Shown here: positions 3,001-29,638 of the stretch, piece by piece
Position numbering within the stretch: position 1 is the stretch's first letter
Layout of the letters: each line of letters starts with the position of its first letter
Origin: Myxococcales bacterium
GTDB taxonomy: Bacteria > Myxococcota_A > UBA9042
Assembly: GCA_037441385.1 (NCBI GenBank)
Contig: JBBISH010000064.1
Span: forward strand, 1-35,300
Length of the DNA: 35,300 nucleotides
Reading direction: 5' to 3'
Notes under the pieces: generated by a model
Told to the model about the DNA's origin: nothing
Databases searched by the model: none
The model's input: only the letters and a program-made list of their open reading frames with translations
Translations under genes and position numbers: made by a program

Positions 3001-3263
3001 CAGCCGCCGCCACCAGGACAGCTACCTTCCGGCACATCCTTTTCTGTATCCGCGGGTTGCGCGTCATCAGCGACTTCTGGCGCATCGTTGGGTGGGACAA
3101 TGGAATCGTCGCTGGTAGCGTCGCTGGCCGCAGCGTCGACCTTGGCCACGGTCGCTGGGGCGGGGTCTTCCCCGCAACCCGCCGCAAGCAAAGCCAAGGC
3201 AAGGGCAGGCAGGACGCCAAGCGGGCGGTACGAGCGACACAGACCAAAGGGGAAACGTGGCAT
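1..3263 (-). CDS. Large cysteine-rich repeat lipoprotein (3' end outside window, >1080 aa)
   Basis: Translated by hand from ATG 3263 (GGAGG RBS): MPRFPFGLCRSYRPLGVLPALALALLAAGC (lipobox), an acidic linker, then many C-D-D-G-N-[PA]-C-T-x-x-D-x-C repeats and one EICDGQDNDCNGKTDD MopE-type motif (~2405-2460). No stop seen before the window edge, hence absent from the ORF track. Confidence 0.9.
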   Translation of the reverse strand, partial: MPRFPFGLCRSYRPLGVLPALALALLAAGCGEDPAPATVAKVDAAASDATSDDSIVPPNDAPEVADDAQPADTEKDVPEGSCPGGGGCACKVNGDCDIGLCIDTPEGKRCATTCTTNCPADFQCAQVSGAGGDVQSICVPKWGKLCDPCTTSAACAAPGQGAAVCVVHGDAGAFCGAVCTGDSECPSGFACQNLPTIDGATAKQCAPKAGTDGVLGACTCSNAAKAAALSTGCMAVAKDAQGNVIGKCPGQRACGADGLSTCSAPSPSGEICDGQDNDCNGKTDDGVCDDAKVCTEDVCDPKKGCSNTVLDGQPCDDGNACTESEACSGDTCKGAKAKSCDDGNPCTADSCLPAKGCQHKNDDGAPCDDDNLCTVGDQCQAAACASGAPKVCTSSDSCMVGKCALDDGKCKFSAKQDGLACDDGTPCTTPDICTGGACTGKVANCDDGNPCSDDGCDPQLGCTHALNNGPCSDGNACTVGDACAQGFCGSGAKKPCDDGNLCTVDGCDAQTGQCTATPSTAPCSDGNACTGPDQCSGGSCAPGPATACSDGNPCTIDSCDPGTGACAYVASSGQPCDDGDACSVGEQCAAGKCSLGTQQNCADSDACTLDTCNKSTGECGHAPIAGCGGACKDATDCQDNNVCTVDACLGGKCAFVPTTVKCDDGDACTVGDTCTSGVCLPGTAKNCDDGNPCTADSCLNGGCDHSPTAAPCDDGNACSLGDACKDGNCAPGKAKVCDDGNPCSADQCDSQTGACSALASSGPCDDGDPCTVADSCQGGTCSAGPAVSCDDGNPCTSDTCDPKTGKCLNVASPAPCSDGDACTQGDACIQGACKPGVAKSCDDGNPCTHDVCATQTGGCDHNPIATSCSDGDACTFGDVCQQGVCMAGAAKVCADSDACTSDVCDSATGNCNFKPIAGCGGNCTSPSECDDGNLCTDNLCAAGKCSFAANTATCDDGSACTLGDLCGGGVCKSGAAKNCDDGNPCTTDACAASTGACANTANTLACDDGNSCSIGDACAGGACKPGKILACSDGNPCTDDACDPSSGACKSTANTAPCDDGNACSAGDTCAAAACKPGAAKNCDDSN

Positions 3264-3828
3264 GGGCGGCCTCCAGCGGACCAGTGTGGCCACGCCGCAG
3301 TCTTGGCAGTGTGGCCGATCCAGTGGGCACGCGACAAGGGGATTTGACGAGCGTCGCCAGTGCGGCGAATGCTCGACTTGGGGCACTGCAGGGCGACGCC
3401 GAACGCGAGGTCCGTTTCCGCTAAGAAACTGAGTAGAAATCTGCCCTTGACGCGTCTCGCAGGGCGGCGTAGGCTTTGATGTCACGGCCGGAAGGTCCGG
3501 CCGAGCGGTGGCGATGGCGACGCACGGCGCGCTCCGCCAAGGCGGTTGCGGCTCGCGCCCACCGCCACAACTGTGGGCATCATGGGTTGCAGGTAGATTG
3601 CCCCCAGGTACAAAGACGACGCGAATGGATCCCGCTGGGGTGGATGTGCATGGATCGCTGCGTCCCGCTTGACCGGTCCAGGTCGGTTCGGACTAGGCCG
3701 GGGGCGAGCGGGCCGCGGGCAAGATGGGCTGCGTTGGCGGCATGCCATGGGCAGCGAGTGGTGGGCCGGACCTTCAAGAGCGGATTGCTTTTGTATCGCG
3801 AGGTGGACATCCCAGGCGAGGGATAGCG

Positions 3829-7410
<3,582 letters not shown>

Positions 7411-7420
7411 TGCGGAATGC

Positions 7421-7843
7421 GTCCGAGTCGGACCGAAGGCTCGGGCAATTCTTCCTGCCTTACCGGTTGCCTACTCTGCCTCCACGTCGAAGGACCCTCA
7501 CCCCCGGCCTATGGCCGACCCCTCTCCCACTGAAGTAGGCGAGGTGTAAAGAGAAATTGCATTGCCCGTCGCCCAAAGCGTTGGGAGAGGAGGGGTCCCC
7601 GCGGTGAGCGAAGGGAGCGAGTGGCGCAGGGAGAGCGGGGCTGCCGCGGCAGGCGGCGGGGTGAGGGCTAAGTGCCGCGGCTTGCACAGGTTTCCAATAC
7701 ACTCAGGGTGCTAGTAGCTGTCCGGTAAGGCAGGCAATTCTTCGGGCCCGCACCGGGGTCCCCGCCTGATTCCCCACCTAATTTTCAACAGTTGTAGAAC
7801 GGTTCAGAAAGCCGTACAGGCTAGTATCAGGTGGGGTGCGTAT
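7421..7843 (+). repeat. Repeat family B copy 1 (~135-bp unit, interrupted by MITE A1)
   Basis: GTCCGAgTCGGAcCGAAggCTCGGGCAATTCTT...CGGGCCCGcACCGGGGTCCCCGCCTGATTC...GGTTCAGAAAGCCGTACAGGC...ATCAGGTgGGGTGCGTAT matches the reverse complement of 21561-21938 and part of 33711-33755. Confidence 0.8.
7454..7734. mobile_element. MITE family A copy 1
   Basis: TIRs CCTGCCTTACCGG / CCGGTAAGGCAGG. Exact 8-bp direct repeat CAATTCTT at 7446-7453 and 7735-7742. No credible ORF inside. Confidence 0.88.
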
Positions 7844-9210: not shown

Positions 9211-9555
9211 CTACGGGGCGGCGGCGGCCGGCGTGTCCCCGTCCAGACCCTGCCGGCCCCGGTGGTGACCGTGACGGCAGTGGCCCATCGCCTCGCGGAA
9301 ACGCTGGCGTTCTTCGTCGCTCATCTTGGCCCAGCGGGCGCGCCGGTGCATCCACCCGCGGTGACCAAAGCCGCCCGACAGGACCCGCGCCAGCAGCAGC
9401 AGACCCAAGGCGTGCGGGAAGTCGATCGGCTGGGCACCAGTCACAAGGCCCGGAACCAGCCAATTCCACAGCAGCATCACGCCGCCGCCCAAGCCCGACA
9501 CGGCCACCGCGACAAACACGAAGAACTTGACGAAACGAAAGAAACGCGAAGGCAT
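9211..9555 (-). CDS. Small membrane protein associated with the ECF sigma factor
   Basis: Two hydrophobic segments (VMLLWNWLVP...ALGLLLLARVLSGG) and a charged tail WAKMSDEERQRFRE; directly downstream of the sigma gene; GGAG RBS before ATG 9555. Confidence 0.8.
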   Translation of the reverse strand: MPSRFFRFVKFFVFVAVAVSGLGGGVMLLWNWLVPGLVTGAQPIDFPHALGLLLLARVLSGGFGHRGWMHRRARWAKMSDEERQRFREAMGHCRHGHHRGRQGLDGDTPAAAAP

Positions 9556-9573
9556 ATTCACTCCTGTGCGCTG

Positions 9574-10152
9574 CTAGAGCGCGTCACCGTTGTCTTGAAG
9601 CGCGGCCAGCCGGCGGCGAAGGTGCTGCACGGCATAGCGTTTGCGCGCCAGTAGGGTGTTCTGATTGACCCCCGTGGCCTCGGCCATGTCGCGGAACGAC
9701 ACGCCGTCGACCTCGTGGGCCAAGAAGACGTCGCGCTGCTCGGGCGGCAGCTCGTCCAGCGCCGCCTCGATCTCGGCCAGCAGCACGGCGCGGGCGTATT
9801 CCGCGTCGGGACCACCCCGCGGATCGGGGAGTTGCCGCTCGAGCCAGCTGCCGTCGCCGTCGTCGTCCTCAGGCAGCGGCAGCTCCTTCTTCTTGCGGAA
9901 CCGGTCGACGATGCGGTTGCGGGCGACGCGAAACAGCCACGCGCCCACTTGCTCGACGGGCTCCGAGACCAGCACGGTCTCGACCAATTCCGCGAACGTG
10001 TCTTGGACCAGATCCTCGGCCTCGGCCGCGCTGCCCAGCCGCTGCCGCGCAAAGGCGGTAAGGCGGCTGCGCTCGCGGACAAAGACCGCGGTCAGGCGGC
10101 TTTGGGATTCGGCGGTTTGTGCGGAGATGTGTGCGGAGATGGCGGCGTCCAT
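9574..10152 (-). CDS. ECF RNA polymerase sigma factor
   Basis: Region 2 AEDLVQDTF...AWLFRVARNRIVDRFRK and region 4 LDELPPEQRDVFLAHEVDGVSFRDMA...RKRYAVQHLRRRL. Confidence 0.93.
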   Translation of the reverse strand: MDAAISAHISAQTAESQSRLTAVFVRERSRLTAFARQRLGSAAEAEDLVQDTFAELVETVLVSEPVEQVGAWLFRVARNRIVDRFRKKKELPLPEDDDGDGSWLERQLPDPRGGPDAEYARAVLLAEIEAALDELPPEQRDVFLAHEVDGVSFRDMAEATGVNQNTLLARKRYAVQHLRRRLAALQDNGDAL

Positions 10153-10265: not shown

Positions 10266-10549
10266 CGGCTACGGAAGGCGGATTCGACTTTGGGCGTCCC
10301 GGTCCGGCGACGAGGGTGCTGGCGGGGTCGGCAAGAACTTGCGCCGGCCCGTCGCGCTCCGGCCGCCGGTCGAAGAAAGGTCTGGCGAGAGTCGAAGTTG
10401 CTTGCTCCCGGCGGTGGCGACGCTCTGTCGCGCCGCCACCCCTCCGGGGCCTGGATCGCTGACGCGGAACTGCCTGCTATTCGAGAGATCGTCGCTAGAA
10501 ACGTTTGGATTCACCTGGACTTGGCTAACAAGTTGCGGCGCCGGAACTT
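10266..10549. repeat. Structured repeat family C copy 1
   Basis: TTTGGGCGTCCCGG...GCGCCGGCCCGTCGCGCTCCGGCCGCCGGTCGAAG...GGTGGCGACGC-loop-CGCGCCGCCACC...GGATCGCTGACGCGGAAC...CTTGGCTAACAAGTTGCG; recurs five more times (one partial). Confidence 0.9.
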
Positions 10550-10605
10550 GTTGGCGGGTGGTGCGTACTGGCGGACACAGAGGGGCGGCCGGCAGCACAG
10601 ACAGT

Positions 10606-10950
10606 TTCATTCCGGCGCCGGAATGAACGGGTTGAGCGGGCGACCGCCGGAGGGCCACGTCAAAGGATGCAATTTGCCGTCGGTTTCATCGGTTCGGCCT
10701 ACGGTCGGCAAGTCATCGAAGCGGTCGCGGTACAGGCGGCCAAAGGCGACTTGATTCGTCTGACGCGAAATCTCAATGACGACGTTGGCGCCGCCGGTCT
10801 GGCTGGGTGCGGAGCGCTCGCTGGGCGGGCAACTGACGAGGGCTTGCCAGAGCTGGTTGGTCGGGACGGTCGCGCCGCGATTGCCACGGTCGTCGCGGTT
10901 GTAGTTGGTCGTGGTGTAGAGCTTGACGGTCCGTTCGAAGTACGCGGGCT
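10606..10950 (-). repeat. Repeat D copy 1 (coding-like segment ending in a 22-bp palindrome)
   Basis: Closely similar to 16584-16930. Minus frame reads KPAYFERTVKLYTTTNYNRDD...FGRLYRDRFDDLP...FIPAPE*. Perfect palindrome TTCATTCCGGCGCCGGAATGAA at 10606-10627. Confidence 0.8.
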
Positions 10951-11049
10951 TTGTTATGGATTACCTTGAGGTTGAAGGGGCTTGCGGAGTTGTACCGGTC
11001 TCGGGGAGCGTCGGTTTGCCTGTCAACCTCTGGCAAATGACCGCGCTCT

Positions 11050-11078
11050 GGTCTGCGAGCAGCAATGCTCGCAGGACC
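11050..11078 (-). terminator. Hairpin downstream of the immunity gene (possible terminator)
   Basis: CTGCGAGCA-GCAA-TGCTCGCAG stem ~35 nt after the stop at 11111; no clear U tract. Confidence 0.35.
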
Positions 11079-11110
11079 ACAGGCTCCGCCACTGATACGC
11101 AACTGACGCA

Positions 11111-11443
11111 TCAGCACTTCCATGCAGAAAAATCAGGGAGTTGACCGAATTTGACCTCCGGCAGGGAACTCAACTCCTCTGCCGTGAATTCATCCTCTGG
11201 ATTGTCGTCAAGCCAGAACGCGAACTCGGAATCTGCCCAACTCCAAGCCTGCGATTGGCCCGCTGCCTCAAACAAGTTTCGTACGTAACTGTTTGCTACC
11301 GTCTGGCCCCAGGTGAGAGCCTGGGCCCGGTCGGCAGCGAAGACGAAGAACGCGCCTGACCATTCGTCGTCCCAGCCGTGGTCACGATTAGCCTGCAGCT
11401 GTTCGGGAGTGCTGTAGCCAAATCGAAACAAGAACTTTCCCAT
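11111..11443 (-). CDS. Putative immunity protein for Rhs-CT 1
   Basis: 110-aa acidic/aromatic ORF starting 12 nt after the toxin stop, with GAGG RBS. This is the standard position for a polymorphic-toxin immunity gene. Confidence 0.75.
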   Translation of the reverse strand: MGKFLFRFGYSTPEQLQANRDHGWDDEWSGAFFVFAADRAQALTWGQTVANSYVRNLFEAAGQSQAWSWADSEFAFWLDDNPEDEFTAEELSSLPEVKFGQLPDFSAWKC

Positions 11444-11455
11444 CGGCCGTGTCCC

Positions 11456-12949
11456 TCAGGGCAGTCTAGGTGGAATCGGCCGTCCAGTGGGCCCGATTCT
11501 TGGAGTTTGCGAACTTCCTCTGAGCTGGATTGCCTCGCCCCATGTGCTAACCGTGTCCCCGGCCTTGTTCCACGGCCGAGAGAGCATCTCGGCAGGTAAT
11601 GGGTCTCCAGGTTGACGGATGACAACAGGAATTTCGCGCATGTTCTGCTCCAGGGCAACTGCCGCCCTAGTGTGATCGACGGTGACGAGACCATCGACCG
11701 TCGCGACGACATCTGCAGGAGGACCGATCCAGCCTTTTTCGCTCATGAATCTCCGTATGATTCCGGCACGACCACTGCCACCGGCTGACGACTGGCTCCA
11801 TCGGAGGACCTTGGGATCGAGGAATTCGACCTTTGGAACTGACCCAAATGGACCAACGGAGGCCATGAAAGTGGAGGCCTCTCGGCCCAACATCATACGC
11901 GAAGCCATGCGGCCATACCGCACTAGGTCCAGTTGCGCGTCTGCCGCACGGTGGTCTGGAGAATCCTTCACGATATGGCAATAACTGCAGCCGTGCCCAG
12001 CCTCCGCGACCTCGGCCAGGCGCAGATTGCCCGCTCGCGCTTCGTTGCCAGCGACCATGTTCGCGTAGTGATCGCGTGGCCAGTTGGCCTGCAAGCGCAC
12101 GCCAGCCGGCCCCACCATGAATTCGTTGGGATTTGGCGGTCCGACAAAGTCGATCTGACTAGGTGTGGGGCTCGAGTGAAAAGTGCGGGTACGAGGCTGC
12201 GCATCGGAATGCCCTGATGCCCCGGCGCCCGAAAGCTGTGCCCGCAGCGACTGGTACACAGCGTCGGGCAATGCGGGGTCCCGCCCATCCGGGTCCACCC
12301 GAGAAACCGGATTTCCCGAACAAAACTCATACCCACTGCGCCCAGCCTGAAAAACTGGATCCCCAGCCGTCCACCTCCCCAACCAAGCCGCAAAGTACCG
12401 AGCCCCAAAGTAATACAGCCCGTTCTCGCTATCGCACTCCTTACCCGCATACCGATACCGCTTGACCGAAAACCCCGAATACCCCGACGCCGCAAACGCA
12501 TACGCCGTCCCGCCATACGGGTAATACTCTTCGCGAGTTAGCACCTGTCCAGAGTCCGTGGTCTCCAAGCACGAACTGCCCAGGTGGTTGCCGAGCTGGT
12601 AGCGCAGTACTGCCGCCGCCCCCGTGCTCGCCCCGGCCTCGATGGTCTTGACCTCAAACCGCGCCAGGCACCCGCGATCGTCCATCACGGCGAGCGTCTG
12701 CCACTCGACCCAGACCGAACCGCCCGAAAGGCTCTGCGAAATCTCAAAGCCGCCCGGCAAATACACCGTGATCTTACTTGGGGTTAGCGTGTAGCCGCTC
12801 AGGCTCCCGTACCGCTTGACCACCCGATTGCCACCGCCGTCGTAGCTGTAGCGGGCCACGGCGCTGCTGCTCGCGTAGGTCTGCTCGAGCCGGTTGGCGT
12901 AGTTCCACTTCAGGCCCGGGTTGTTGCCTGCGCCCGGCAAGTGCGGCAT
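11456..12949 (-). CDS. Orphan TcC/Rhs core plus C-terminal ParB-like toxin domain
   Basis: Rhs core motifs YQLGNHLGSS, EEYYPYGG, RYRYAGKECD, GLYYFGARYF, NPVSRVDPDG (cleavage motif). Tip LRWSQ...GWIGPPADVV...DGLVTVDHTRAAVA...TWGEAI resembles ParB-like polymorphic toxin domains. Confidence 0.85.
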   Translation of the reverse strand: MPHLPGAGNNPGLKWNYANRLEQTYASSSAVARYSYDGGGNRVVKRYGSLSGYTLTPSKITVYLPGGFEISQSLSGGSVWVEWQTLAVMDDRGCLARFEVKTIEAGASTGAAAVLRYQLGNHLGSSCLETTDSGQVLTREEYYPYGGTAYAFAASGYSGFSVKRYRYAGKECDSENGLYYFGARYFAAWLGRWTAGDPVFQAGRSGYEFCSGNPVSRVDPDGRDPALPDAVYQSLRAQLSGAGASGHSDAQPRTRTFHSSPTPSQIDFVGPPNPNEFMVGPAGVRLQANWPRDHYANMVAGNEARAGNLRLAEVAEAGHGCSYCHIVKDSPDHRAADAQLDLVRYGRMASRMMLGREASTFMASVGPFGSVPKVEFLDPKVLRWSQSSAGGSGRAGIIRRFMSEKGWIGPPADVVATVDGLVTVDHTRAAVALEQNMREIPVVIRQPGDPLPAEMLSRPWNKAGDTVSTWGEAIQLRGSSQTPRIGPTGRPIPPRLP

Positions 12950-13271
12950 CGAGCTCGTGTTTCCGGCGTTGTCGTAGGTGTAGTTCGCCGTCGTGCCGCC
13001 GATCGTATCGCTGCTCAGCCGACTACTGTCCGACGCGTAGCTATTTGATCGCGTCCACGACGCCGGACTCTGCCCCGGAACGAAGTGCTGAACTTGGCTC
13101 AGATTTCCGTCCGCGTCGTAGGCTAACTGCTGAATATAGTTGCGAGCAGCCGTCCCCGAGGGTGGGGGAGCGGGCCCAAACCCCGTGCCGCTCGGCCGTA
13201 TTCATTCTTGTTCTTGGGCAGCTGGGCACTGGATCCTGACTGTTTATCGCGGCTTCGCGCCCTGTCGCCGT
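12950..13271 (-). pseudogene. Degenerate upstream Rhs fragment of cassette 1
   Basis: Matches 15408-15711 (TATGREAAINSQDP...YDADGNLSQVQHF). Frameshifted by a 24-nt segment at 13195-13218. Confidence 0.8.
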
Positions 13272-13287
13272 AGAACAGGTGGCGTGG

Positions 13288-13530
13288 TTTGGGCGTCCCG
13301 GGCCGGCGACGGGGGCTGCTGGCCGGTTCGTGAAGGGCTTGCGCCGGCCCGTCGCGCTCCGGCCGCCGGTCGAAGAAAGATCAGGCAGGAGTCGAAGTTG
13401 CTTGCTCCCGGCGGTGGCGACGCTACCCCGCGCCGCCACCCCAGCGGGGCCTGGATCGCTGACGCGGAACTAGCCGCGTTTCGAGAGATCGCGGTTAGAA
13501 GTGCACGCAAGCACGACGACTTGGCTAACA
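13288..13530. repeat. Repeat family C copy 2
   Basis: Same core as copy 1; ends at TTGGCTAACA and lacks the terminal palindrome. Confidence 0.88.
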
Positions 13531-13555
13531 CTCACATGTGGGCTGCGGAGGGGTA

Positions 13556-14143
13556 CTAGCCGTGACTGGGCGCCCCGCCGCCAAGGCGAAGCCAGTGGTG
13601 CCGCGCCACCTGCACGTCGGTCTTGTACGTGCCGGCAAGTCGCTCAATCAGCGCGGCGACCCTTTCCCGTTCTTCGGGCAATGCGTGCTCCAGCAAGGCC
13701 TCGATGTCCGCCTCGTCCTGCCGCCGCTGCCGGTGCACCACCGCCACCAGCTTAAAGAGCAGCAAATACGGCAAGGTCACCACCGGCACGCTGACCATTG
13801 GAAACAGCTCGATCTTCTCGGCCTGGGCACACGCTTCGGCCTCAAGGCCAGTTGCACCAAGCAGCAGGTCGACGCGGACTTGCCCGCTGATGAGGCGCAT
13901 CGCGGCTACTTCATTGGTGCCGTCCACGGCGAGCAGGGCATCGATGGCCAACCCGCGCGCAGCCAGGCTGCGGCCCAGAGAATCCACTGCGCTTGGCTGC
14001 ACCGCCACCGCCAAGTCGATGTCGCGAGTGAAGCGCGGCTCGCTGCGCGCCGAGACAGCCAAGCCGCCAATCAGCGCAAAGGGCACGTGCAATTCGGTCA
14101 AAACACGGCAAATATCGCGGAGAGCGGCAGCAAGCGCTGTCAT
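13556..14143 (-). CDS. MenT1-like (Rv0078A-like) nucleotidyltransferase toxin
   Basis: FALIGGLAVSARSEPRFTRDIDLAV, VDLL, LLLFKL and RRQDEADI closely match M. tuberculosis MenT1 as recalled (WALVGGFAVSARSEPRFTRDVD). ATG 14143 overlaps the upstream stop (ATGA). Confidence 0.87.
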   Translation of the reverse strand: MTALAAALRDICRVLTELHVPFALIGGLAVSARSEPRFTRDIDLAVAVQPSAVDSLGRSLAARGLAIDALLAVDGTNEVAAMRLISGQVRVDLLLGATGLEAEACAQAEKIELFPMVSVPVVTLPYLLLFKLVAVVHRQRRQDEADIEALLEHALPEERERVAALIERLAGTYKTDVQVARHHWLRLGGGAPSHG

Positions 14144-14391
14144 GTCTGGGCCGTGTGTGGGGCGGAGGGCAACTCCGCGTCGGCGGCTAGCGCCACAACA
14201 TGAACGGCCGGCCATTTCTCGGCGGGCGCGCCAAGCAGCCAGGCAGACAGTTGCATTTGCGCGCCCTCGACGCCAAGCGCTCGCTCCAGCCGCAAGCGCA
14301 CCATGGCCACGCCGTCGTCGTACATTTCTAGCGCCTGCAGTAGCTTGGCGGCGGCAGGCTCTTGGCGAGAGGAGTCGCGGTCAGGGCGCAC
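14140..14391 (-). CDS. MenA1-like (Rv0078B-like) antitoxin
   Basis: AAAKLLQALEMYDDGVAMVRLRL resembles MenA1 as recalled (AAQKLRLALDMYEVGEQMQRMRL). GTG start with GGAG RBS; translationally coupled to the toxin. Confidence 0.8.
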   Translation of the reverse strand: MRPDRDSSRQEPAAAKLLQALEMYDDGVAMVRLRLERALGVEGAQMQLSAWLLGAPAEKWPAVHVVALAADAELPSAPHTAQT

Positions 14392-14556
14392 GGCCAAGCT
14401 CCAAACGCCCGTAACGGCGCCAGGATAGTGTACCGTGGGGGCCGTGGTGGCGCTACCTCGAAGGCGACACCCCAGCGCGTCGTAAACCAGAATCGGCGTC
14501 ACTGCTTGGGTGCGTAACGCCGCATCGGTCTCGCTGTCGCTCGATTTGCCTTGAAA

Positions 14557-14840
14557 CGGCTACGGAAAAGGGAGTGGGGTTTGGGCGTCCCGGGCCGGCG
14601 ACGTGGGTGCTGGCGGGGTCGGGAGGGGCTTGCGCCGGCCCGTCGCGCTCCGGCCGCCGGTCGAAGGAAGGGCAGGCGAGAGTCGAAGTGGCCTGCTCCC
14701 GGCGGTGGCGACGCTCGATCGCGCCGCCACCCCGAGAGGGCCGGGATCGCTGACGCGGAACTGCCTGCTGTTCCAGAGATCGTCGCTAGAAACGTTTGGA
14801 TTCACCTGGACTTGACTAACAAGTTGCGACGTCGCAACTT
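14557..14840. repeat. Repeat family C copy 3
   Basis: Same core; ends in the perfect palindrome AAGTTGCGACGTCGCAACTT (14821-14840). Confidence 0.9.
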
Positions 14841-14912
14841 GCCTGGCATGCGGCTGCCCTGTGTTGGGTCGGGCAGTTGGTCTGACCGCGGTCGTTGGCA
14901 AGTCTCAGCGAG

Positions 14913-15185
14913 CTAATGGGGCCACCCGCAAATGATCGCAACCGCTTCCCAGACAAAAACAAGGGCAAACACCGTGGTGGCGAGACTCATTAGCTGCGTA
15001 AACCTACGAAACTCAACCTTGCTCATGTCACGTGCGGCGTGTTCAAAGTTGAACACGGGCTCGTCGGTCCGACGAGCCCAATCTTGAAATCGCTCGCCGT
15101 ACCTCAACATAACGAACGCCGAAGCCAGTCCAAGGACCGCACCGCCAACGCACCCGAGAAAGTCCTTAAATTCTGTATTAGTCAA
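14913..15185 (-). CDS. Putative 2-TM membrane immunity protein (90 aa)
   Basis: TTG 15185 overlaps the TGA of an upstream toxin-tip remnant (TTGA). Hydrophobic helices FLGCVGGAVLGLASAFVML and LATTVFALVFVWEAVAIICG. Confidence 0.6.
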   Translation of the reverse strand: MTNTEFKDFLGCVGGAVLGLASAFVMLRYGERFQDWARRTDEPVFNFEHAARDMSKVEFRRFTQLMSLATTVFALVFVWEAVAIICGWPH

Positions 15186-15390
15186 TTCTTCGTCGCCTCG
15201 GGCCAACTCAGTGCCCCGAACCAGCCCCATTCTGAGGCGTAGTGAAGCCCGAATCCAACTTCTGGCGGCCACGCGCCAGCTTGGTTTTCCGTCCCGAGCG
15301 AGAGATCCGTGCCGATGCCTAACCCGACAGAAGGGCCTAGACTGAATCCCGTCAGACGTTTCTGGGTCTCGCCTGGCGTGGCGGGCCGCC
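15182..15390 (-). pseudogene. Remnant of a Gly-rich Rhs C-terminal tip
   Basis: Alternative frame RPATPGETQKRLTGFSLGPSVGLGIGTDLSLG...GFGLHYASEWGWFGALSWPEATKN*, fused out of frame to the Rhs fragment at MPHLPG. Confidence 0.5.
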
Positions 15391-16210
15391 CCCGGCAAGT
15401 GCGGCATAGAGCTAGTGTTTCGGGCGTTGTCGTAGGTGTAGCTCGCCGTCGTGCCGCCGATCGTATCGCTGCCCAGCCGACTACTGTCCGAAGCGTAGCT
15501 GTACGATCTCGTCCACGACGCCGAACTGTCTCCTGGAACGAAGTGTTGAACTTGGCTCAGATTTCCGACCGCATCGTAGGCGATCTGCTGCTGGTAGTTC
15601 CTCGCGGCCGTCCCCGAGGGCGGGGGAGTGGGCCCAAACCCGGTCCCGCTCGTCACCCAGCTGGGCACAGGATCCTGACTGTTTATCGCAGCTTCGCGCC
15701 CAGTCGCCGTCACCAGCCGGTACAGCGGGTCGTAGGTATGGTCCCAGTCCGGCGGTTGCTGCTGGTTGTCGAAATAGCTCGGCCCAATCCCATCATCGTG
15801 GACGTGGACGACGTTGCCGACCGGGTCGTACGTCAGCTTGAGATCCTGCAGCACCGCCGAGTCGCCGCTCCGCACGGTCTGCTGCCGCACCAGCCGGAAG
15901 GTCGGGCTGTCGTACGTCAGCGTAGAACTCGTGGTATTGCCGTAGCTGATCCCCGTGCGCTGGCCCTTGGCGTTGTACGAAATCGACGACACGACCGTGC
16001 TGCTCGACTGCCCCGTTCTCCCAACGACTACAGAAACCAATAGCCCGCGCAGGTTGTAGGTCTTGGTCACCGTCGTCAGGTTGATCGAGGTCTGCGACGT
16101 CACCCGCCCCAGCGCGTCGTAGCTCGTCGCCGTCGTGTACGGGCTTCCCAGATTCGAGCCCGGCACCGAGCTCCACGCGGTGATCGTGGTCTGATAGTTC
16201 GGGTCGCGCG
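15391..16210 (-). pseudogene. Internal TcC/Rhs YD-repeat fragment (cassette 3; Rhs core deleted)
   Basis: YDALGRVTSQ, YNAKGQRTGISYGN, LQDLKLTYDPVGNV, YDPLYRLVTATGRE, YDAVGNL, MPHLPG. No own start; homology with the other cassettes stops at 15391. Confidence 0.85.
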
Positions 16211-16213
16211 AAA

Positions 16214-16510
16214 CGGTTACGGAAAGGGGTTGCTGCGTGCGGCGTGGGCTTTGGGCGTCCCGGGCCGGCGACGAGGGGTGCTGGCGGGTCGCGGATGACT
16301 TACGCCGGCCCGTCGCGCTCCGGCCGCCGGTCGAAGAAAAGTCTGGCGAGAGCCGAGGTGGCTTGCTCCCGGCGGTGGCGACGCTAGCCCGCGCCGCCAC
16401 CCCAGCGGGGCCTGGATCGCTGACGCGGAACTGGCTGCCTTTCGAGAGTTTGGAGTTGGAAACGCCCGAAATCACCTGGACTTGGCGTACAAGTTGCGGC
16501 GCCGCAACTT
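16214..16510. repeat. Repeat family C copy 4
   Basis: Same core; perfect palindrome AAGTTGCGGCGCCGCAACTT at 16491-16510. Confidence 0.9.
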
Positions 16511-16583
16511 CTTGGACGGCGGCTCTGGTCCCTTGCGTGGTCGTGCGTGTGCTGGTCACTGGCCGTGTCGTTCCGGCTGTGGT

Positions 16584-16935
16584 TTCATTCCGGCGCCGGA
16601 ATGAACGTGTTTGGCAGGCGACCGTCGGAGGGCCAGGTAGAGGGATGCAATTTGCCGCCAGTTCCACCGGGTCGGCCCACACTGGGCAAGTCATCGAAGC
16701 GGTCGCGGTGCAGGCGGCCAAAGGCGACTTGATTCGTATGGCGCGAAATCTCAATGACGACGTTGGCGCCGCCGGTCTGGCTGGGTGCGGAGCGCTCGCT
16801 GGGCGGGCAACTGACGAGGGCTTGCCAGAGCCGGTTGGTCGGGATGGTCGCGCCGCGATTGCCGTGGTCGTCGCGGTTGTAGATGGTCGTGGTGTAGGGC
16901 TTGACGGTTCGTTCGAAGTAGGCGGGTTTGGGCAT
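16584..16935 (-). repeat. Repeat D copy 2 / possible 116-aa ORF
   Basis: ORF MPKPAYFERTVKPYTTTIYNRDD...FIPAPE with GC3-rich codons; duplicate of 10606-10950. Confidence 0.7.
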
Positions 16936-17013
16936 TTGGGTGCTCGGCGTGGTGGTAGTTGCTTGACCTTGCGGTCATCGTGGGCGGTGTGGACTTCGTG
17001 GTCAAGGCGTGGA

Positions 17014-17092
17014 CCGGCCCGTCGCGCTCCGGCCGCCGGACAAGGGCGAATCCTGAGCAGAATTCAGCGGGGCCTGGATCGCTGACGCGGAA
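17014..17092. repeat. Repeat family C copy 5 (internally deleted)
   Basis: CCGGCCCGTCGCGCTCCGGCCGCCGG...CAGCGGGGCCTGGATCGCTGACGCGGAA. Confidence 0.8.
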
Positions 17093-17188
17093 TCCTAGCC
17101 CCACCCTGGTCTGCGACACGTCAGCGAGCCGACCACACGGAGTATGTCGGTATGCGCCAACATGAGGACACCGTTCCACGCCGAATAC

Positions 17189-17566
17189 CTAGCCCGAGTG
17201 TCGCTCGTAGCCAAGGCGCCCCCGCCCTGGAAGCCGTGACTCCCACTCGCACGCCACCACGACCCGTATTCCCTTCGAGTGCAATCCCTCCATAAGCGAC
17301 GAGATAACCCTTAGAAACTTGTCGAGGTCAACAGAGTCGCTGACGGCTTCAATATCAAGCGCGAGCGGGAAGTAGATGAAGTCGTCGGATTCTACCTTGG
17401 CAGGGCCTCGACAAATATTCTCGTTCCGATCAACATCTATCTCAATCCCGCTCGCCTCGATTGTCCAACCGTCAATACTTCCGTTTACCGCCTTGGCGAC
17501 CAACTCAAGGACGCTGGTGCGGTCAAGGCCTCCATCCACATACGCTTTGGCAAACCTGGCCACCAT
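17189..17566 (-). CDS. Putative immunity protein for Rhs-CT 2
   Basis: 125 aa, starts 3 nt after the toxin stop. FIYFPLALDIE...GIRVVVACEWESRLP pattern resembles small proteins seen downstream of polymorphic toxins. Confidence 0.75.
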   Translation of the reverse strand: MVARFAKAYVDGGLDRTSVLELVAKAVNGSIDGWTIEASGIEIDVDRNENICRGPAKVESDDFIYFPLALDIEAVSDSVDLDKFLRVISSLMEGLHSKGIRVVVACEWESRLPGRGRLGYERHSG

Positions 17567-17569
17567 GGA

Positions 17570-19048
17570 CTACCTCAATGGGATGTACGGCCCCTGGTCA
17601 AATGGCCCGCCGATTCGAATGACCGAAATGTCGACTCGCATGCTGAACTCCTTGGCTAGCGATCGACGTAGTCCACGGAGCCCGGCTTCACCCGCCTGGA
17701 TCTTACCGGTCGCGCTGGCGTGTTGCATCGTGCGCTCCAGTGCCGAACCTGAATTCGGCGTTCCAAATCGACTCTTAAGGAACGCGTCGAACTTGTCGGA
17801 CGAGAGGCGGACTGCAATGTCAATGTCGGACGAGGCTCCGGCGGTACCGCTCGCGCGGCTTCCATGAACGGCTATGTCATCACCGATTTGGCCGACTCCG
17901 CGACGCACAAGAGTCGAGAACTCTGCGAATCTTTGGCTGCTCAGTCCTTGCGGGGCCTTCGATACCCGAATGGCCAACACCGCAATACGCCTCGTGACTT
18001 CCTTCTCCACCCTGCCAATCGTCGGAGACGGAGAACTGCGGCCTGCTGCAGCAACTAAACCTTCGACAAATCCAATGAGAATGCCGCCTGCAGCCACCGA
18101 GGCATCCGATGTCGCCTGAGAGACGTCCCCGTGCTTGGCTTCAAGCGCGGCCTTGGCCGCTAGTTGCCCTGATTCGGCCGTGCGGATTCGAGTCTCGTTG
18201 GCCCCCTGGAGCAACGCCTCCGCGCCGACGCCCAGCGCGAGGGCCACAGCACCAGATGCTCTTTCAAGCATACTGCTGTCCTGCGACGCGGCGGCCCGGG
18301 CCGACATGCGGTTGGCTGCCTGGACTGCGGCCAGAGGGGCCCAATCGTGCGATACGGCTATCGCGGGCAAGCGAACATCCACCGCCCCATCCGGATCCAC
18401 CCGAGAAACCGGATTCCCCGAACAAAACTCGTACGAACTGCGCCCAGCGTGGAAAACCGGATCCCCAGCCGTCCACCGCCCCAACCAGGCCGCAAAGTAC
18501 CGAGCCCCAAAGTAATAAAGCCCGTTCTCGCTATCGCACTCCTTGCCGGCATACCTGTACCGCTTGACCGAAAACCCCGAATACCCCGACGCCGCAAACG
18601 CATACGCCGTGCCGCCATATGGATAATACTCTTCGCGGGTTAGCACCTGCCCAGAGTCCGTGGTCTCCAAGCACGAACTGCCCAGGTGATTGCCCAACTG
18701 GTACCGCAGCACCGCCGTCGAGTTCAGCGTCACTCCCGCCTCAATGGTCTGTGCCTCGATCCGGGCCACGCAGGTTCGGTCGTCCATCACCGCCAGCGTC
18801 TGCCACTCGGTCTGAACGGCGCTACCTAAGGTGCGGGTGATCTCGAACCCGCCCGGCAAATACACCGTGACCTTACTTGGGGTTAGCGTGTAGCCGCTCA
18901 AACTCCCGTACCGCTTGACCACCCGATTGCCGCCGCCGTCGTAGCTGTACCTGGCCACCGCGCTGCTGCTGGCGTAGGTCTGCTCCAGCCGGTTGGCGTA
19001 GTTCCACTTCAGGCCTGCCGTACCGCCCGAACCAGGCAAGTGCGGCAT
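17570..19048 (-). CDS. Orphan TcC/Rhs core plus C-terminal Pol-beta-type nucleotidyltransferase domain
   Basis: Core nearly identical to 11456-12949 up to NPVSRVDPDG, then an unrelated tip with IAVHGSRASGTAGASSDIDIAV...RVDISVI (hGS-DxD-D). Confidence 0.85.
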   Translation of the reverse strand: MPHLPGSGGTAGLKWNYANRLEQTYASSSAVARYSYDGGGNRVVKRYGSLSGYTLTPSKVTVYLPGGFEITRTLGSAVQTEWQTLAVMDDRTCVARIEAQTIEAGVTLNSTAVLRYQLGNHLGSSCLETTDSGQVLTREEYYPYGGTAYAFAASGYSGFSVKRYRYAGKECDSENGLYYFGARYFAAWLGRWTAGDPVFHAGRSSYEFCSGNPVSRVDPDGAVDVRLPAIAVSHDWAPLAAVQAANRMSARAAASQDSSMLERASGAVALALGVGAEALLQGANETRIRTAESGQLAAKAALEAKHGDVSQATSDASVAAGGILIGFVEGLVAAAGRSSPSPTIGRVEKEVTRRIAVLAIRVSKAPQGLSSQRFAEFSTLVRRGVGQIGDDIAVHGSRASGTAGASSDIDIAVRLSSDKFDAFLKSRFGTPNSGSALERTMQHASATGKIQAGEAGLRGLRRSLAKEFSMRVDISVIRIGGPFDQGPYIPLR

Positions 19049-19428
19049 CGAGCTCGTGTTTCCGGCGTTGTCGTAGGCGTAGCTCGCCGTCGTGCCGCCG
19101 ATCGTGTCGCTGCCCAGGCGACTACTGTCCGACGCGTAGCTGTACGATCTCGTCCACGACGCCGAACTGTCTCCTGGAACGAAGCGCTGAACTTGGCTCA
19201 GATTTCCGAACGTATCGTAGGCGATCTGCTGAAAACAGTTCCGCGCCGCGGTCCCTGACGGCGGGGGAGCGGGCCCAAACCCCGTGCCGCTCGGCCGTAT
19301 TCATTCTTGTTCTTGGGCAGCTCGGCAGCGGATCCTGACTGTTTATCGCGACTTCGCGCCCTGTCGCCGTCAGCAACCGGTACACCGGGTCGTAGGCATG
19401 GTCCCAGTCGGGCGGTTGCTGCTGGTTG
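19049..19428 (-). pseudogene. Degenerate upstream Rhs fragment of cassette 2
   Basis: QQQPPDWDHAYDPVYRLLTATGREVAINSQDP; carries the same 24-nt frameshifting segment at 19294-19317. Confidence 0.8.
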
Positions 19429-19459
19429 CTGAAGTTGCACCACCGAGCGGCAACAGGGA

Positions 19460-19604
19460 TCCCGATCGGGACAGTATCCCAGGCCGCAGCTGGCCAAAGA
19501 CACCGCCAGCGCCAGATTCTTCCCTTTCGGGAATATCCTGTGTACTCTGCCGGTCAAGAGGCGGCCGCCAGGGCCGCTCAGGTGGCTTCCATGCCCGATC
19601 GGGA
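19460..19604 (+). promoter_or_regulatory. Putative HipB-type operators (three palindromes) and promoter
   Basis: TCCCGATCGGGA 19460-19471, TCCCTTTCGGGA 19521-19532, GCCCGATCGGGA 19593-19604; TACTCT -10-like hexamer near 19543. Confidence 0.65.
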
Positions 19605-19815
19605 ATCAATCGGCAGCTTCGTGCGCCACCGCCGCCGCGCCAACCGCATGACGCAGCGGCAACTAGCCGAATTGGCCGGCGTAGGGCTGCGCTTTCTGTC
19701 TGAGCTAGAGCGGGGCAAGGCGACGGTGCGCGTCGACGCCGTGGACCAAGTGCTACGCGTGTTTGGCAAGCAGCTGGGCGTGGTCGACGCGCCGCGACCG
19801 GATGAGGCGCTGTGA
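19591..19815 (+). CDS. hipB: HipB-like Xre HTH regulator (y4mF family)
   Basis: IGSFVRHRRRANRMTQRQLAELAGVGLRFLSELERGKATVRVD; stop overlaps the next start. Confidence 0.85.
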   Translation: MPDRESIGSFVRHRRRANRMTQRQLAELAGVGLRFLSELERGKATVRVDAVDQVLRVFGKQLGVVDAPRPDEAL

Positions 19816-20147
19816 TGGGGCGGCAGGCGCGGGTGCAGCTAGATGGTGAACTGGTTGGGCACCTTGAAGAAACTGCTGACGGCTACGTCTTTGCCTATGC
19901 CGCCGCTTGGGTCGCTCGCGCCGACGCGCGTCCGGTGTCGCTGACCCTGCCCGTTCGCCTTGCGCCCTATCGAAGCCCACGTCTGCACACCGCTTTCGCG
20001 AACTTGTTGCCAGAAGGCTGGTTGCTGGATTTGTCGGTCGCCAAGCTCAAGATTTCTGCCGACGATGTCTTTGGCTTGCTGCTCGCGGTCTGCCGCGACT
20101 GTGTGGGGGCCGTGGAGATCGTGCCCCTGGGCGGGGAGGCACCGTGA
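19812..20147 (+). CDS. hipS: HipA N-terminal-domain protein (HipS-like antitoxin)
   Basis: YVFAY, PVSLTLP, FANLLPEGW (conserved Trp), DCVGAVEI. Confidence 0.82.
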   Translation: MMGRQARVQLDGELVGHLEETADGYVFAYAAAWVARADARPVSLTLPVRLAPYRSPRLHTAFANLLPEGWLLDLSVAKLKISADDVFGLLLAVCRDCVGAVEIVPLGGEAP

Positions 20148-21076
20148 CCATCTGCCCGCTTTCGCTGGCTATTCTGCCGGATAGCAAGAGCCACGACGCC
20201 GCTGCGGCTCGGCGCCTATTTGGCGGGGACCGGATACCGACCGTCGACCTCGATATGGCGAAGCTGCATACGGTCGGCCTGGCGATGGTGGGCGTGACCT
20301 CGCTGTCTGGCGTGCAGCGCAAGCTGTCGCTCGGCCTTGATAGCGCACGCATGACGCTGCGGCTGCAGACTGAGGGCCGCCAGTTCATCGTAGTGCCGCC
20401 GACCGACCGCTTTGCCGGCCTGCCCGCCAACGAGCATGTGACGATGCGGATCGCCGCGCGCTGCGGTCTGCAAGTGCCCGAGCATGGCCTTTTGCAGCTA
20501 GGCGACGGCACCTTGGCGTACATCGTCGCTCGCTTTGACCGCCCCGTGGCCGGCGGCAAGCTGGCGGTTGAGGATTTTTGTGCGCTTTCTGAGCGCTATC
20601 CGGCCGAAAAGTACCGTGGTTCCGCTGAGCTGTGTGCGCGGGTGGTGCGGCGCTTTGCGTCGGAGCCGGGCATCGCGCTGCGCGACCTTTTTCGGCAGTT
20701 CTTGTTTGCATGGTGGACGGGCAACGGCGACCTGCACCTCAAGAACCTGTCGCTGTGGACCGACGGCACCGGCAAGGTCGGCCTGTCGCCTGCCTATGAC
20801 TTGTTGAATACGCGGCTGTTTTTGCCCGACGACGAGTTGGCGCTGTCGATTTGCGGCCACAAGAAGGAGCTCACGCCGCGGATGTGGGGCGAATTCGGCG
20901 CATATTGCGGTCTGCCCACGCGGGCCATCGCGAGCGTTGCCGGTGGCCTTCTTGCTGCGCTGCCGGATGCCTGTGCGCTGGTCGAGCGCTCGTTCTTGGT
21001 GGAGGCGCAACAGCAGGCCTACGTAGAGCTTTTGAACAAGAGGACTTTGCTGCTGGCCGAGCTTGCGCACCGATAG
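20144..21076 (+). CDS. hipT: HipA-family kinase domain (HipT-like toxin)
   Basis: P-loop TSLSGVQRK, NEHVTM, ARFDR, EDFC, GNGDLHLKN, LSPAYDL; GTG 20144 overlaps the upstream stop. Confidence 0.85.
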   Translation: MTICPLSLAILPDSKSHDAAAARRLFGGDRIPTVDLDMAKLHTVGLAMVGVTSLSGVQRKLSLGLDSARMTLRLQTEGRQFIVVPPTDRFAGLPANEHVTMRIAARCGLQVPEHGLLQLGDGTLAYIVARFDRPVAGGKLAVEDFCALSERYPAEKYRGSAELCARVVRRFASEPGIALRDLFRQFLFAWWTGNGDLHLKNLSLWTDGTGKVGLSPAYDLLNTRLFLPDDELALSICGHKKELTPRMWGEFGAYCGLPTRAIASVAGGLLAALPDACALVERSFLVEAQQQAYVELLNKRTLLLAELAHR

Positions 21077-21112
21077 TGAAGGTTCGGGGTGACCGGGGAG
21101 GATTGGCAGTGG

Positions 21113-21466
21113 TTGGGCGTCCCGGGCCGGCGACGAGGGTGCTGGCGGGGTCGGCAAGAACTTGCGCCGGCCCGTCGCGCTCCGGCCGCCGGTCGAAGAA
21201 CGATCAGGCGATAGTCCAAGTGGCTTGCTCCCGGCGGTGGCGACGCTCGATCGCGCCGCCACCCCAGCGGGGCCTGGATCGCTGACGCGGAACTGCCTGC
21301 TATTCGAGAGATCGTCGCTAGAAACGTTTGGATTCACCTGGACTTGGCTAACAAGTTGCGACGTCGCAACTTCTTGGACGGCAGCGCTGGTGCTTTGCGC
21401 GGTCGTGCGTGTGCTGGTCACGGGCCGTTTCGTCGCGCCCGTGGTTTCATTCCGGCGCCGGAATGA
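21113..21466. repeat. Repeat family C copy 6 plus extension shared with copy 4
   Basis: Core plus palindromes at 21353-21372 and 21447-21466. Confidence 0.9.
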
Positions 21467-21560: not shown

Positions 21561-21938
21561 ATACGCACCCAACCTGATTCGCCTGCCTTACCGGTTGCCT
21601 ACTCTGCCGCCACGTCGAATGGCCCTCACCCCCGGCCTCCGGCCGACCCCGCTCTCGCCGTGAAATTGAGTCACGGTGAGCGAAGCGAACGAGTGGCGCC
21701 AGCGGCGCCGGGAGAGCGGGGCGGCCGCCGCAGGCGGCGAGGTGAGGGCTAAGTGCCGCGGTTCGCACAGGTTTCCAATAGAACTAGGGTGCTAGTAGCT
21801 ATCCGGTAAGGCAGGCTGATTCGCGCCTGTACGGCTTCTCTGAACCGGTCTGCAACCGGCGAGAATCAGGCGGGGACCCCGGTTCGGGCCCGAAGAATTG
21901 CCCGAGTTTTCGATCCGATTCGGACGGAATTGGTATAG
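21561..21938 (-). repeat. Repeat family B copy 2 (interrupted by MITE A2)
   Basis: Reverse complement matches 7421-7843 once the MITEs are removed. Confidence 0.8.
21582..21815. mobile_element. MITE family A copy 2
   Basis: Same TIRs; exact 8-bp direct repeat CTGATTCG at 21574-21581 and 21816-21823. Confidence 0.88.
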
Positions 21939-29244: not shown

Positions 29245-29581
29245 CCTGCCTTACCGCTTGCTTACTCTGCCGCAGCGTCGAATGGCCCTCACCCCCGGCC
29301 TGCGGCCGACCCCCACTCCCACTGAAGTGGGCGAGGTGTAAAGGGAAATTGCATTGCCCCTCGCCCAAAGCGGAGGTTGTTGCATAAGGGTCGAATTCGG
29401 GTGCTTTCGCCGTGCAACCGATTGAATGTATTGGCGTCAGAATTCTGCGAACATACCTTTGCAACAGTCTCAGCGTTGGGAAAGGGGCGGCCGCCGCAGG
29501 CGGCGGGGTGAGGGCTAAGTGCCGCGGTTCGCACAGGTTTCCAATAGAACTAGGGTGCTAGTAGCTAACCGGTAATGCAGG
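29245..29581. mobile_element. MITE family A copy 3
   Basis: Slightly degenerate TIRs (CCTGCCTTACCGC / CCGGTAATGCAGG). 10-bp direct repeat with one mismatch: CCTCTTTCCC / CTTCTTTCCC. Confidence 0.82.
29373..29471. mobile_element. 99-bp IS5-like MITE nested in A3
   Basis: Absent from A1, which reads AAAGCGTTGGG. Flanked by AGCG direct repeats; imperfect TIRs GAGGTTGTTGCATAAGG / CCTTTGCAACAGTCTC. Confidence 0.75.
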
Positions 29582-29638
29582 CTTCTTTCCCCACATTGAG
29601 CGCGGAAGCCGGCTCCCGGCCAGGTGTTTTGCCGCCGC

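Follow-up and report, generated by a model that had tools for sequence, protein, structure and literature searches.

How are toxin, immunity and toxin-antitoxin (TA) modules brought together into conflict islands? The question is raised by a 35.3-kb stretch of contig JBBISH010000064.1 from a Myxococcales bacterium, from now on referred to as the window (the whole stretch that was analysed), in which such modules are separated by copies of a structured repeat called C. To our knowledge, the entry and exit of new toxin tips and immunity genes at Rhs and other polymorphic-toxin loci is mechanistically still unexplained, and we know of few assembly systems for small accessory modules besides integrons and Xer modules. 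The original prediction for this locus described a repeat-punctuated array, and this observation was confirmed as real. We tentatively favour the view that C is a non-coding junction module that acts as the shared recombination substrate of a conflict-module array. The hairpin-rich repeat probably helps to shuffle toxin, immunity and TA modules.

A direct-repeat search identified five copies of about 300 nt (family D2, at 10290, 13290, 14581, 16251 and 21113) with 66–84% identity to the reference copy, and a 41-nt core in six copies (family D14), which adds a match at 17006–17046. An exact 26-base core is found six times on the forward strand (10344, 13344, 14635, 16305, 17014 and 21167) and never on the reverse strand; six one-strand matches of this core cannot be explained by chance. 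Profiles built from the window copies, or from window and related copies together, yielded no further C in the window below E = 0.06, the weaker rows being reverse-strand matches to a palindrome within C. All copies are confined to 10.29–21.38 kb, on the forward strand and inside an island of low G+C at third codon positions (GC3), and none is found in the other 24 kb. The copies, named C1 to C6 by order, are:

10288..10560, forward strand: C1, full copy; island boundary on the side of the ECF sigma factor gene; tail to hairpin TCATTCCGGCGCCGGAATGA at 10607–10626
13287..13553, forward strand: C2, full core with a divergent 3' tail lacking the 20-bp palindrome; abuts the broken 5' end of an Rhs fragment
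14579..14848, forward strand: C3, full copy
16249..16518, forward strand: C4, full copy; abuts the broken 5' end of an Rhs fragment; tail to the hairpin at 16585–16604
17002..17092, forward strand: C5, relic; 26-base core and GGGGCCTGGATCGCTGACGCGGAA block kept, 5' part degenerate
21111..21380, forward strand: C6, full copy; other island boundary; mosaic of C1-like and C4-like parts; tail to the hairpin at 21447–21466

The conserved left edge of C lies at 10288, 13287, 14579, 16249 and 21111, and in C1, C3 and C4 a semi-conserved short motif, CGGYTACGGAARGG, is located 10–40 nt to the left of it. From this edge, a conserved core of about 180 nt is followed by a lineage-specific 3' tail of about 90 nt, giving about 270 nt in total, with a perfect 20-bp palindrome, AAGTTGCGRCGYCGCAACTT, at the end of the tail in most full copies; the tails of C1, C4 and C6 extend about 90 nt to a second hairpin, TCATTCCGGCGCCGGAATGA. 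The relic C5 retains two blocks, 17002–17051 and 17065–17092, with a short hairpin in place of the stems between them; the second conserved block comprises 24 bases. Six same-orientation copies had been predicted: the orientation and the sites hold, whereas the copy at 17014 proved to be this relic, leaving five full copies. The predicted starts at 10266, 14557 and 16214 are defensible via the left motif of C1, C3 and C4, but the conserved edge lies further to the right.

Aligning 21 cores that represent six genomes shows that the invariant blocks of C pair with each other, forming four hairpins and a long-range helix with five G+C-rich stems:

P2: CGGGCCGGCG paired with CGCCGGCCCG, enclosing the first variable hairpin
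P3: TCGCG.TCC paired with GGA.CGC.GA, the long-range helix
P4: GCCGCCGG paired with CCGGCGGT, enclosing the second variable hairpin
P5: GGCG.CGC paired with GCG.CGCC around a 6–7-nt loop
P6: CCCC paired with GGGG around a 2–4-nt loop

The first variable hairpin measures 52–53 nt, or has collapsed to a 3-nt loop in one metagenome-assembled genome (MAG), and the second is exactly 54 nt long in all 24 of the 24 copies that keep both flanking arms. About 90 positions are constant in the 21 copies, comprising 61 of 74 paired versus 30 of 110 unpaired columns, while hairpin tips and loops are hypervariable. Pairing is maintained in 99.5% of cells and 34 of 37 pairs show no variation at all. A covariation test of the five helices found none of the 37 pairs changed on both sides, invariant stems making covariation uninformative. 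These invariant, non-covarying stems argue for sequence recognition rather than mere pairing, and their invariance across six genomes implies, as far as sequence can tell, a further sequence-specific ligand or an RNA-level role. P5 can be extended to an 11-6-11 inverted repeat, GGTGGCGACGC-N6-GCGCCGCCACC, present in all 21 aligned copies with a varying central 6 nt.

Folding energies are only slightly better than those of dinucleotide shuffles (mean z of -0.96 on the forward and -1.76 on the reverse strand); the raw energy is lower on the forward strand in 17 of 21 copies, following the G-richness of that strand. RNAalifold, applied to five window copies on both strands, returned only 4 and 0 compensatory pairs. 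Searches of Rfam 15 at gathering and permissive thresholds with the window, six loci and single copies gave no match to C, the best stray scores being 8.5, 16 and 19.7 bits, where the thresholds are 100, 60 and 90. A scan for sigma-70 promoters and terminators found none in C, with totals at or below shuffled expectation. A coding role was also considered and rejected: the length differences among loops and hairpins are not multiples of three, and C is therefore non-coding.

The window copies are mosaics, which shows that recombination between them has occurred. Over the first variable hairpin C6 has the C1 sequence throughout (32/32), as it does over the 3' domain (60/60); its second hairpin is unique among the window copies, and from the 20-bp palindrome on it matches C4 at 28 of 30 positions versus C1 at 23 of 31. 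C2 and C4 agree at 65 of the 66 positions of the P4–P6 block, loops included, but are strongly different elsewhere. By raw counts, informative sites run in long blocks and are not interspersed. Such exchanges as are visible resemble plain homologous recombination or gene conversion. Further, an ORF (open reading frame) called X and its hairpin are 92% identical between two Rhs modules, A and C (module letters are independent of the repeat's name), whereas the adjoining repeat copies C1 and C4 share only about 77%, which gives the repeat a history distinct from that of its neighbours. At its left edge, C is joined to broken Rhs genes in three places that differ in Rhs position: 13271 and about 16210–16229 in the window, both as originally described, and a related locus, L005.

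To identify C elsewhere, species-representative genomes were scanned with a 22-base piece of the core, and 17 contigs matched. Two are Streptomyces contigs matching over only about 25 nt, which were dismissed as chance. The other 15 belong to five Myxococcota/'Deltaproteobacteria' MAG assemblies (CAISBR01, JBIKTV01, CAIXGW01, CAXNCS01 and JACRCU01) and carry 25 copies, 23 found by profile search and two short variants by the exact core alone; exact-core matches number at most 13 per MAG. No match to C was found by blastn in plasmid and phage collections. In 12 of the 15 MAG contigs a copy is located within about 1 kb of a contig end; C therefore breaks these assemblies, and its contexts are often cut off. 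All contigs with at least two copies have them co-oriented: six in the window, four in L001, three in L005, three in L011 and four in L019, that is, 20 copies on five contigs.

The genes around these copies were analysed by Pfam scans of hit-centred sequence from the 15 loci (about 97 kb, 310 ORFs). Neighbours of the MAG copies include PIN, Phd/YefM, AbiEi/AbiEii, DUF6036, NTP_transf_2, Xre-type HTH, YhcG nuclease and DUF4160 genes, and 13 of the 25 copies have a TA-type or Rhs-tip gene (PIN, Phd/YefM, AbiE, nucleotidyltransferase, HTH or DUF4160) within about 1.5 kb. In L005, an Rhs fragment whose tip is 36% identical to window tip A (tblastn) begins about 20–55 nt from the left edge of C, and in L017 an Rhs_assc_core (NCBIfam), a tip and a small ORF are followed by C. 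The suggestion that C marks module junctions is thus borne out in five other Myxococcota assemblies, with TA-type genes and Rhs tips. A restriction to toxin and TA loci would fit the 13 copies just mentioned; in the hit-centred fragments others adjoin ordinary genes.

Some of these loci show further features. In L018, a group II intron of about 2 kb (1912–4164) splits one C at profile position 147/148, in the P5 hairpin. It encodes a reverse transcriptase/maturase (2320–3960, forward strand), matches Rfam RF02001 at 2120–2291 (forward strand), is antisense to C(+), which is the sense of most neighbouring genes, and lies just after the CCCC/GGGG hairpin on that strand. In L016, direct repeats of 792 nt with 92.7% identity (434–1225 and 2664–3455), built from other intergenic modules termed x and U, surround an AbiEi/AbiEii pair without any C; C is therefore not the sole repeat flanking TA modules in these genomes. 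Module U is found directly left of C in one MAG group (L011:8956–9334 and 10987–11324; L006:898–1327; L010:4055–4484); in it, an ORF with an acidic tail (...FDELPADEWAA*) contributes its 3' end, behind which comes a conserved promoter-like site, TTGACG-17 nt-TAGGCT, facing the next gene.

C lies between small self-contained conflict modules, that is, orphan Rhs tips with a small ORF and TA pairs, and we hypothesize that its co-oriented copies recombine with one another. Such exchange could excise units of 'C plus module' as loops, double or replace them, or bring new ones in, and a single crossover between an incoming or looped-out C and a resident C would place C beside the former neighbour of that segment. 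C would be joined to Rhs genes broken at different points because such units are joined through C, and the two near-identical copies bounding the island could likewise be explained by exchange through C. In a stronger form, which we regard as doubtful, C would be the recognition site of an undescribed Myxococcota cassette-exchange system, in which folded single-stranded DNA or RNA is read by a trans-acting enzyme encoded elsewhere that excises and inserts 'C plus module' units. Such a system would build arrays of orphan Rhs tips and TA modules, and would be integron-like in function and unrelated to attC/IntI.

Several observations weigh against C as a shared recombination substrate. Neither a defined crossover point nor a target duplication nor a sharp right end came to light, and homology stops raggedly at profile position ~153, ~182, ~193, ~270 or later. 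The truncation common to L014 and L016, compared by eye with an L011 copy, resembles a deletion at GCCGCC microhomology. Cassette breakpoints in related genomes had been expected within C, but those of shared modules fall 70–80 nt outside it in two comparisons, one of an HTH gene (L011 vs L016) and one of a Phd-PIN pair (L006 vs L016). Rhs modules A and C are plain paralogous duplicates, and segmental duplication alone could give part of the array. Some copies adjoin genes for GH127, an AI-2E transporter, Tag glycosylase, CotH or an outer-membrane efflux protein, most of the copies beside ordinary genes being at contig ends. The sense of the neighbours is not fixed either: of 21 annotated neighbours, 16 run antisense to C and five in its sense, the latter including window HipBST and the Phd-PIN pair of L006 and L016. 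TA modules in one MAG group are also flanked by different intergenic repeats, at times without C. Lastly, protein-family scans of the window and of the 310 ORFs of the related loci revealed no gene for an integrase or other recombinase, a transposase or a HUH protein; in those loci a group II intron reverse transcriptase is the sole mobile-element protein. The proposal of C as a recombination or capture site is partly supported: the mosaic copies show recombination, whereas a dedicated capture role would go further, and no crossover point at a defined site was seen. The variable gene orientation relative to C, some ordinary neighbours and the ragged homology ends argue against a strictly integron-like picture.

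Other explanations for C have to be considered. It might be a structured RNA travelling with the modules, for example a small RNA, a stabiliser in the 3' untranslated region or a terminator/insulator, with recombination as a by-product. In line with this, a long-range helix closes a set of four hairpins whose basal stems are invariant and whose tips are free, and relic C5 retains both strands of that helix with its interior swapped for a short hairpin. The perfect palindrome at the tail end lies 26–68 nt from the stop codon of the convergent gene (C2, C3), and the group II intron resides within one copy in rcC sense. However, none of the 37 pairs covaries, energies barely beat dinucleotide shuffles and z slightly favours the reverse strand, promoter and terminator consensus are missing from C, the upstream flank is not conserved across lineages, Rfam gave no match, and the invariant stems indicate sequence recognition. 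We consider an RNA identity unlikely. A non-autonomous mobile element inserting into intergenic DNA of accessory islands, similar to a miniature inverted-repeat transposable element (MITE), a REPIN formed from repetitive extragenic palindromic (REP) sequences or a palindrome-associated transposable element (PATE), is likewise improbable. Its transposase would act in trans, and the co-orientation would stem from a strand-specific, replication-linked mechanism. REP, REPIN and MITE sequences are non-coding, hairpin-forming, intergenic and multi-copy, with conserved stems and free loops. C shares these features and, like such repeats, breaks short-read assemblies; the several copies per genome and the contig ends near copies in 12 of 15 MAG contigs are as expected for assembly-breaking repeats. 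Subterminal hairpins, unrelated ordinary genes beside some copies and strict within-contig co-orientation can be added, and no terminal inverted repeat was recognised by eye, no dedicated search having been made. C differs from such repeats in being low-copy (at most 13 exact-core matches in one MAG), clustered in conflict islands, larger and more complex in its fold, and diverged in its variable parts, where the window copies differ by 20–40%, which argues against a recent burst. Moreover, its right ends are ragged, the two end hairpins are dissimilar, no pair of empty and filled sites was found, and no locus contains a transposase. No REP-associated tyrosine transposase (RAYT), other HUH enzyme or DDE transposase was found in the window or the 310 locus ORFs, and neither terminal inverted repeats nor target site duplications were seen by eye in the flanks.

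It is still less probable that C is functionless and descends from a single ancestral intergenic region through tandem duplication and unequal crossing-over that copied the modules with it. This would account for Rhs modules A and C having the same order at 87–93% identity, for the left-flank motif common to C1, C3, C4 and MAG copies, and for the repeated pieces U and x that flank MAG TA modules without C. It fits poorly with about 90 invariant positions amid neighbours saturated with changes, with the flanking of unrelated modules (MenT-like, HipBST, PIN/Phd and YhcG), and with a 54-nt hairpin whose length is constant despite sequence turnover. The last alternative, which we judge very improbable, equates C with an atypical attC and reads the array as a CALIN (cluster of attC sites lacking integrases) whose integron integrase would be encoded at another genomic location. 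attC sites carry the boxes R'' (RYYYAAC) and R' (GTTRRRY) at their two ends and are typically under ~150 nt. An attC is one imperfect palindrome folding into a single hairpin with extrahelical bases, and a CALIN comprises at least two attC sites on one strand within 4 kb with no intI nearby (PMC4889954). The C layout fits this spacing, with sites 0.7–4.2 kb apart on one strand and no integrase family, which the CALIN definition allows (PMC4889954). As in integron arrays, co-oriented structured sites that are more alike within one genome than between genomes separate small accessory modules, including TA pairs, that look promoter-less; the intron in one copy recalls reported intron-attC associations (PMC7923331). 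The sites do not qualify as attC, however. In agreement with the original statement that integrase and attC are absent, neither an intI domain nor any other recombinase family was found in the window or the 310 ORFs, and an RYYYAAC...GTTRRRY pair in attC order is missing from five of five full copies on either strand at 40–220 nt spacing. C is also longer (180–270 nt) and multi-hairpin with stems invariant across genomes, homology begins at the left edge, goes rightward and ends raggedly, modules face both ways, and cassettes lack a defined boundary.

Two further systems resemble the array in layout. The 11-6-11 inverted repeat of C has the geometry of an Xer site (two 11-bp arms and a 6-bp centre), geometry alone being observed, and we know of no similarity between C and dif sequences. 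As reported for the Acinetobacter pdif modules (PMC6449649, PMC13141974, PMC7399989), short recombination sites stand on either side of small accessory modules, TA pairs among them, whose shuffling involves no recombinase encoded by the element itself. In contrast to pdif, C is chromosomal, has one orientation, places the inverted repeat inside a far larger conserved element and differs in the central 6 nt among copies. Orphan rhs-CT/immunity arrays are reported to lie downstream of rhs genes in Salmonella, Serratia and E. coli (PMC3967940, PMC3150448). In both settings, 5'-truncated fragments retain the core end (Rhs_assc_core), to which a variable tip and, downstream, a small ORF are joined; several such fragments follow one another on one strand, and their core homology could serve for recombination. 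Here, unlike in those arrays, a hairpin repeat of 180–270 nt separates the fragments, TA modules are interleaved, the window lacks any rhs gene of full length, which may lie outside it, and C also flanks modules without Rhs. C therefore resembles integron/CALIN, pdif and orphan Rhs arrays in layout and has the defining features of none of these site families.

No published description of C was found for the core sequence or in the titles and abstract openings of the Rhs/orphan/myxobacteria and integron/CALIN/Myxococcota literature. C is a candidate new structured non-coding family of a barely studied clade. It offers a concrete, testable handle on how conflict islands are built, with about 90 invariant positions, a location at module junctions, joints to broken Rhs genes and recombining copies. 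Even if C were merely a recombination-prone intergenic relic, it would still document the construction of conflict islands in Myxococcota.

The modules between the copies in the window are:

10610..10957, reverse strand: ORF X copy, 84% amino acid identity to 16585–16935, without known family; stop codon within the hairpin at 10607
11111..11443, reverse strand: small ORF immediately following Rhs tip A; immunity gene presumed solely from its position
11456..13271, reverse strand: Rhs module A, 5'-truncated; intact ORF 11456–12949, then frameshifted Rhs remnant to 13271
13556..14215, reverse strand: AbiEii/MenT-like nucleotidyltransferase (AbiEii, E = 1.7e-12)
14140..14502, reverse strand: Rv0078B-like antitoxin ORF upstream of AbiEii (24.5 bits, under the Pfam cut-off of 27.1)
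14913..16229, reverse strand: Rhs fragment B; RHS repeat; core breaks after 'MPHLPG' and continues into a C-terminal hydrophobic ORF
16585..16935, reverse strand: ORF X, 116 amino acids, without known family
17189..17566, reverse strand: small ORF following Rhs tip C; immunity gene presumed solely from its position
17570..19438, reverse strand: Rhs module C, 5'-truncated; ORF 17570–19048, then Rhs remnant to 19438
19426..21076, forward strand: HipB (19426–19815; HTH_3/couple_hipB), HipS (19812–20147; Couple_hipA) and HipT (20144–21076; HipA_C)

Rhs modules A and C are paralogues with the common order C, hairpin, X, small ORF, tip and Rhs core (87–93% identity). The Rhs ORF of module A contains Rhs_assc_core (TIGR03696) at residues 142–222 followed by a 270-aa variable tip, for which Pfam returned nothing at E <= 1 and PDB sequences gave no meaningful match. 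Of the interval described as a Rhs-ParB tip with immunity gene, the Rhs core and tip are thus present, while the ParB label is without family or PDB match. The corresponding ORF of module C carries Rhs_assc_core at residues 141–221 and an NTP_transf_2 nucleotidyltransferase tip, and here the predicted combination of a nucleotidyltransferase tip with HipBST was recovered: an HTH antitoxin, a HipA N-terminal-domain protein and a HipA C-terminal kinase are encoded adjacent to one another. HipBST is the sole window module in the same sense as C. The presumed immunity ORFs 11111–11443 and 17189–17566 showed no protein family matches. In both modules ORF X is placed between the small post-tip ORF and C and ends in a stop codon that falls within a perfect hairpin; X may represent either an additional immunity gene or an orphan fragment. 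All Rhs fragments in the window have at most ~620 codons with frameshifts upstream, and the N-terminal delivery part and most YD repeats are missing.

The interval assigned to MenA1/MenT1 does encode an AbiEii/MenT-like nucleotidyltransferase and an Rv0078B-like antitoxin ORF upstream of it, the arrangement of an AbiE/MenAT-type TA pair. The antitoxin-like ORF and the AbiEii ORF, taken from its first ATG, overlap by 76 nt, and the true start of the toxin is probably downstream of the listed ATG. The next interval had been read as a deleted Rhs gene with membrane immunity; it contains the RHS repeat fragment and the hydrophobic ORF, but the immunity role is without family match.

The island has a G+C content of 58–67% (10.2–22.3 kb) compared with 62–74% in the flanks, and none of its ORFs passes the GC3 filter that flanking genes pass. 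Because G+C and GC3 are lower than in the flanks, a foreign origin of the island appears to be what its composition points to. A scan for tRNA and tmRNA genes in the window found none. The island is inserted directly upstream of an ECF sigma operon: the ECF sigma factor gene (9211–10152, reverse strand) begins 138 nt from the left edge of C1, and the small ORF that follows it, without a significant family match, may encode a membrane-associated protein and possible anti-sigma factor.

Another repeat family, R2 (about 130–280 nt, 75–94% identity), occurs at 7454–7735, 21582–21816 and 29245–29582, with one copy directly after C6 at the island edge and a relative at L011:5545–5646; it contains CCCTCACCCC...GGCCGACCCC motifs. 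At 3–3485 (reverse strand), tandem units of 156 nt, which dominate the results of the repeat search, encode a large Cys-rich protein that contains at least 14 Dicty_CTDC repeats. Related genes are also found in L016 and L019, adjoining C-bearing regions.

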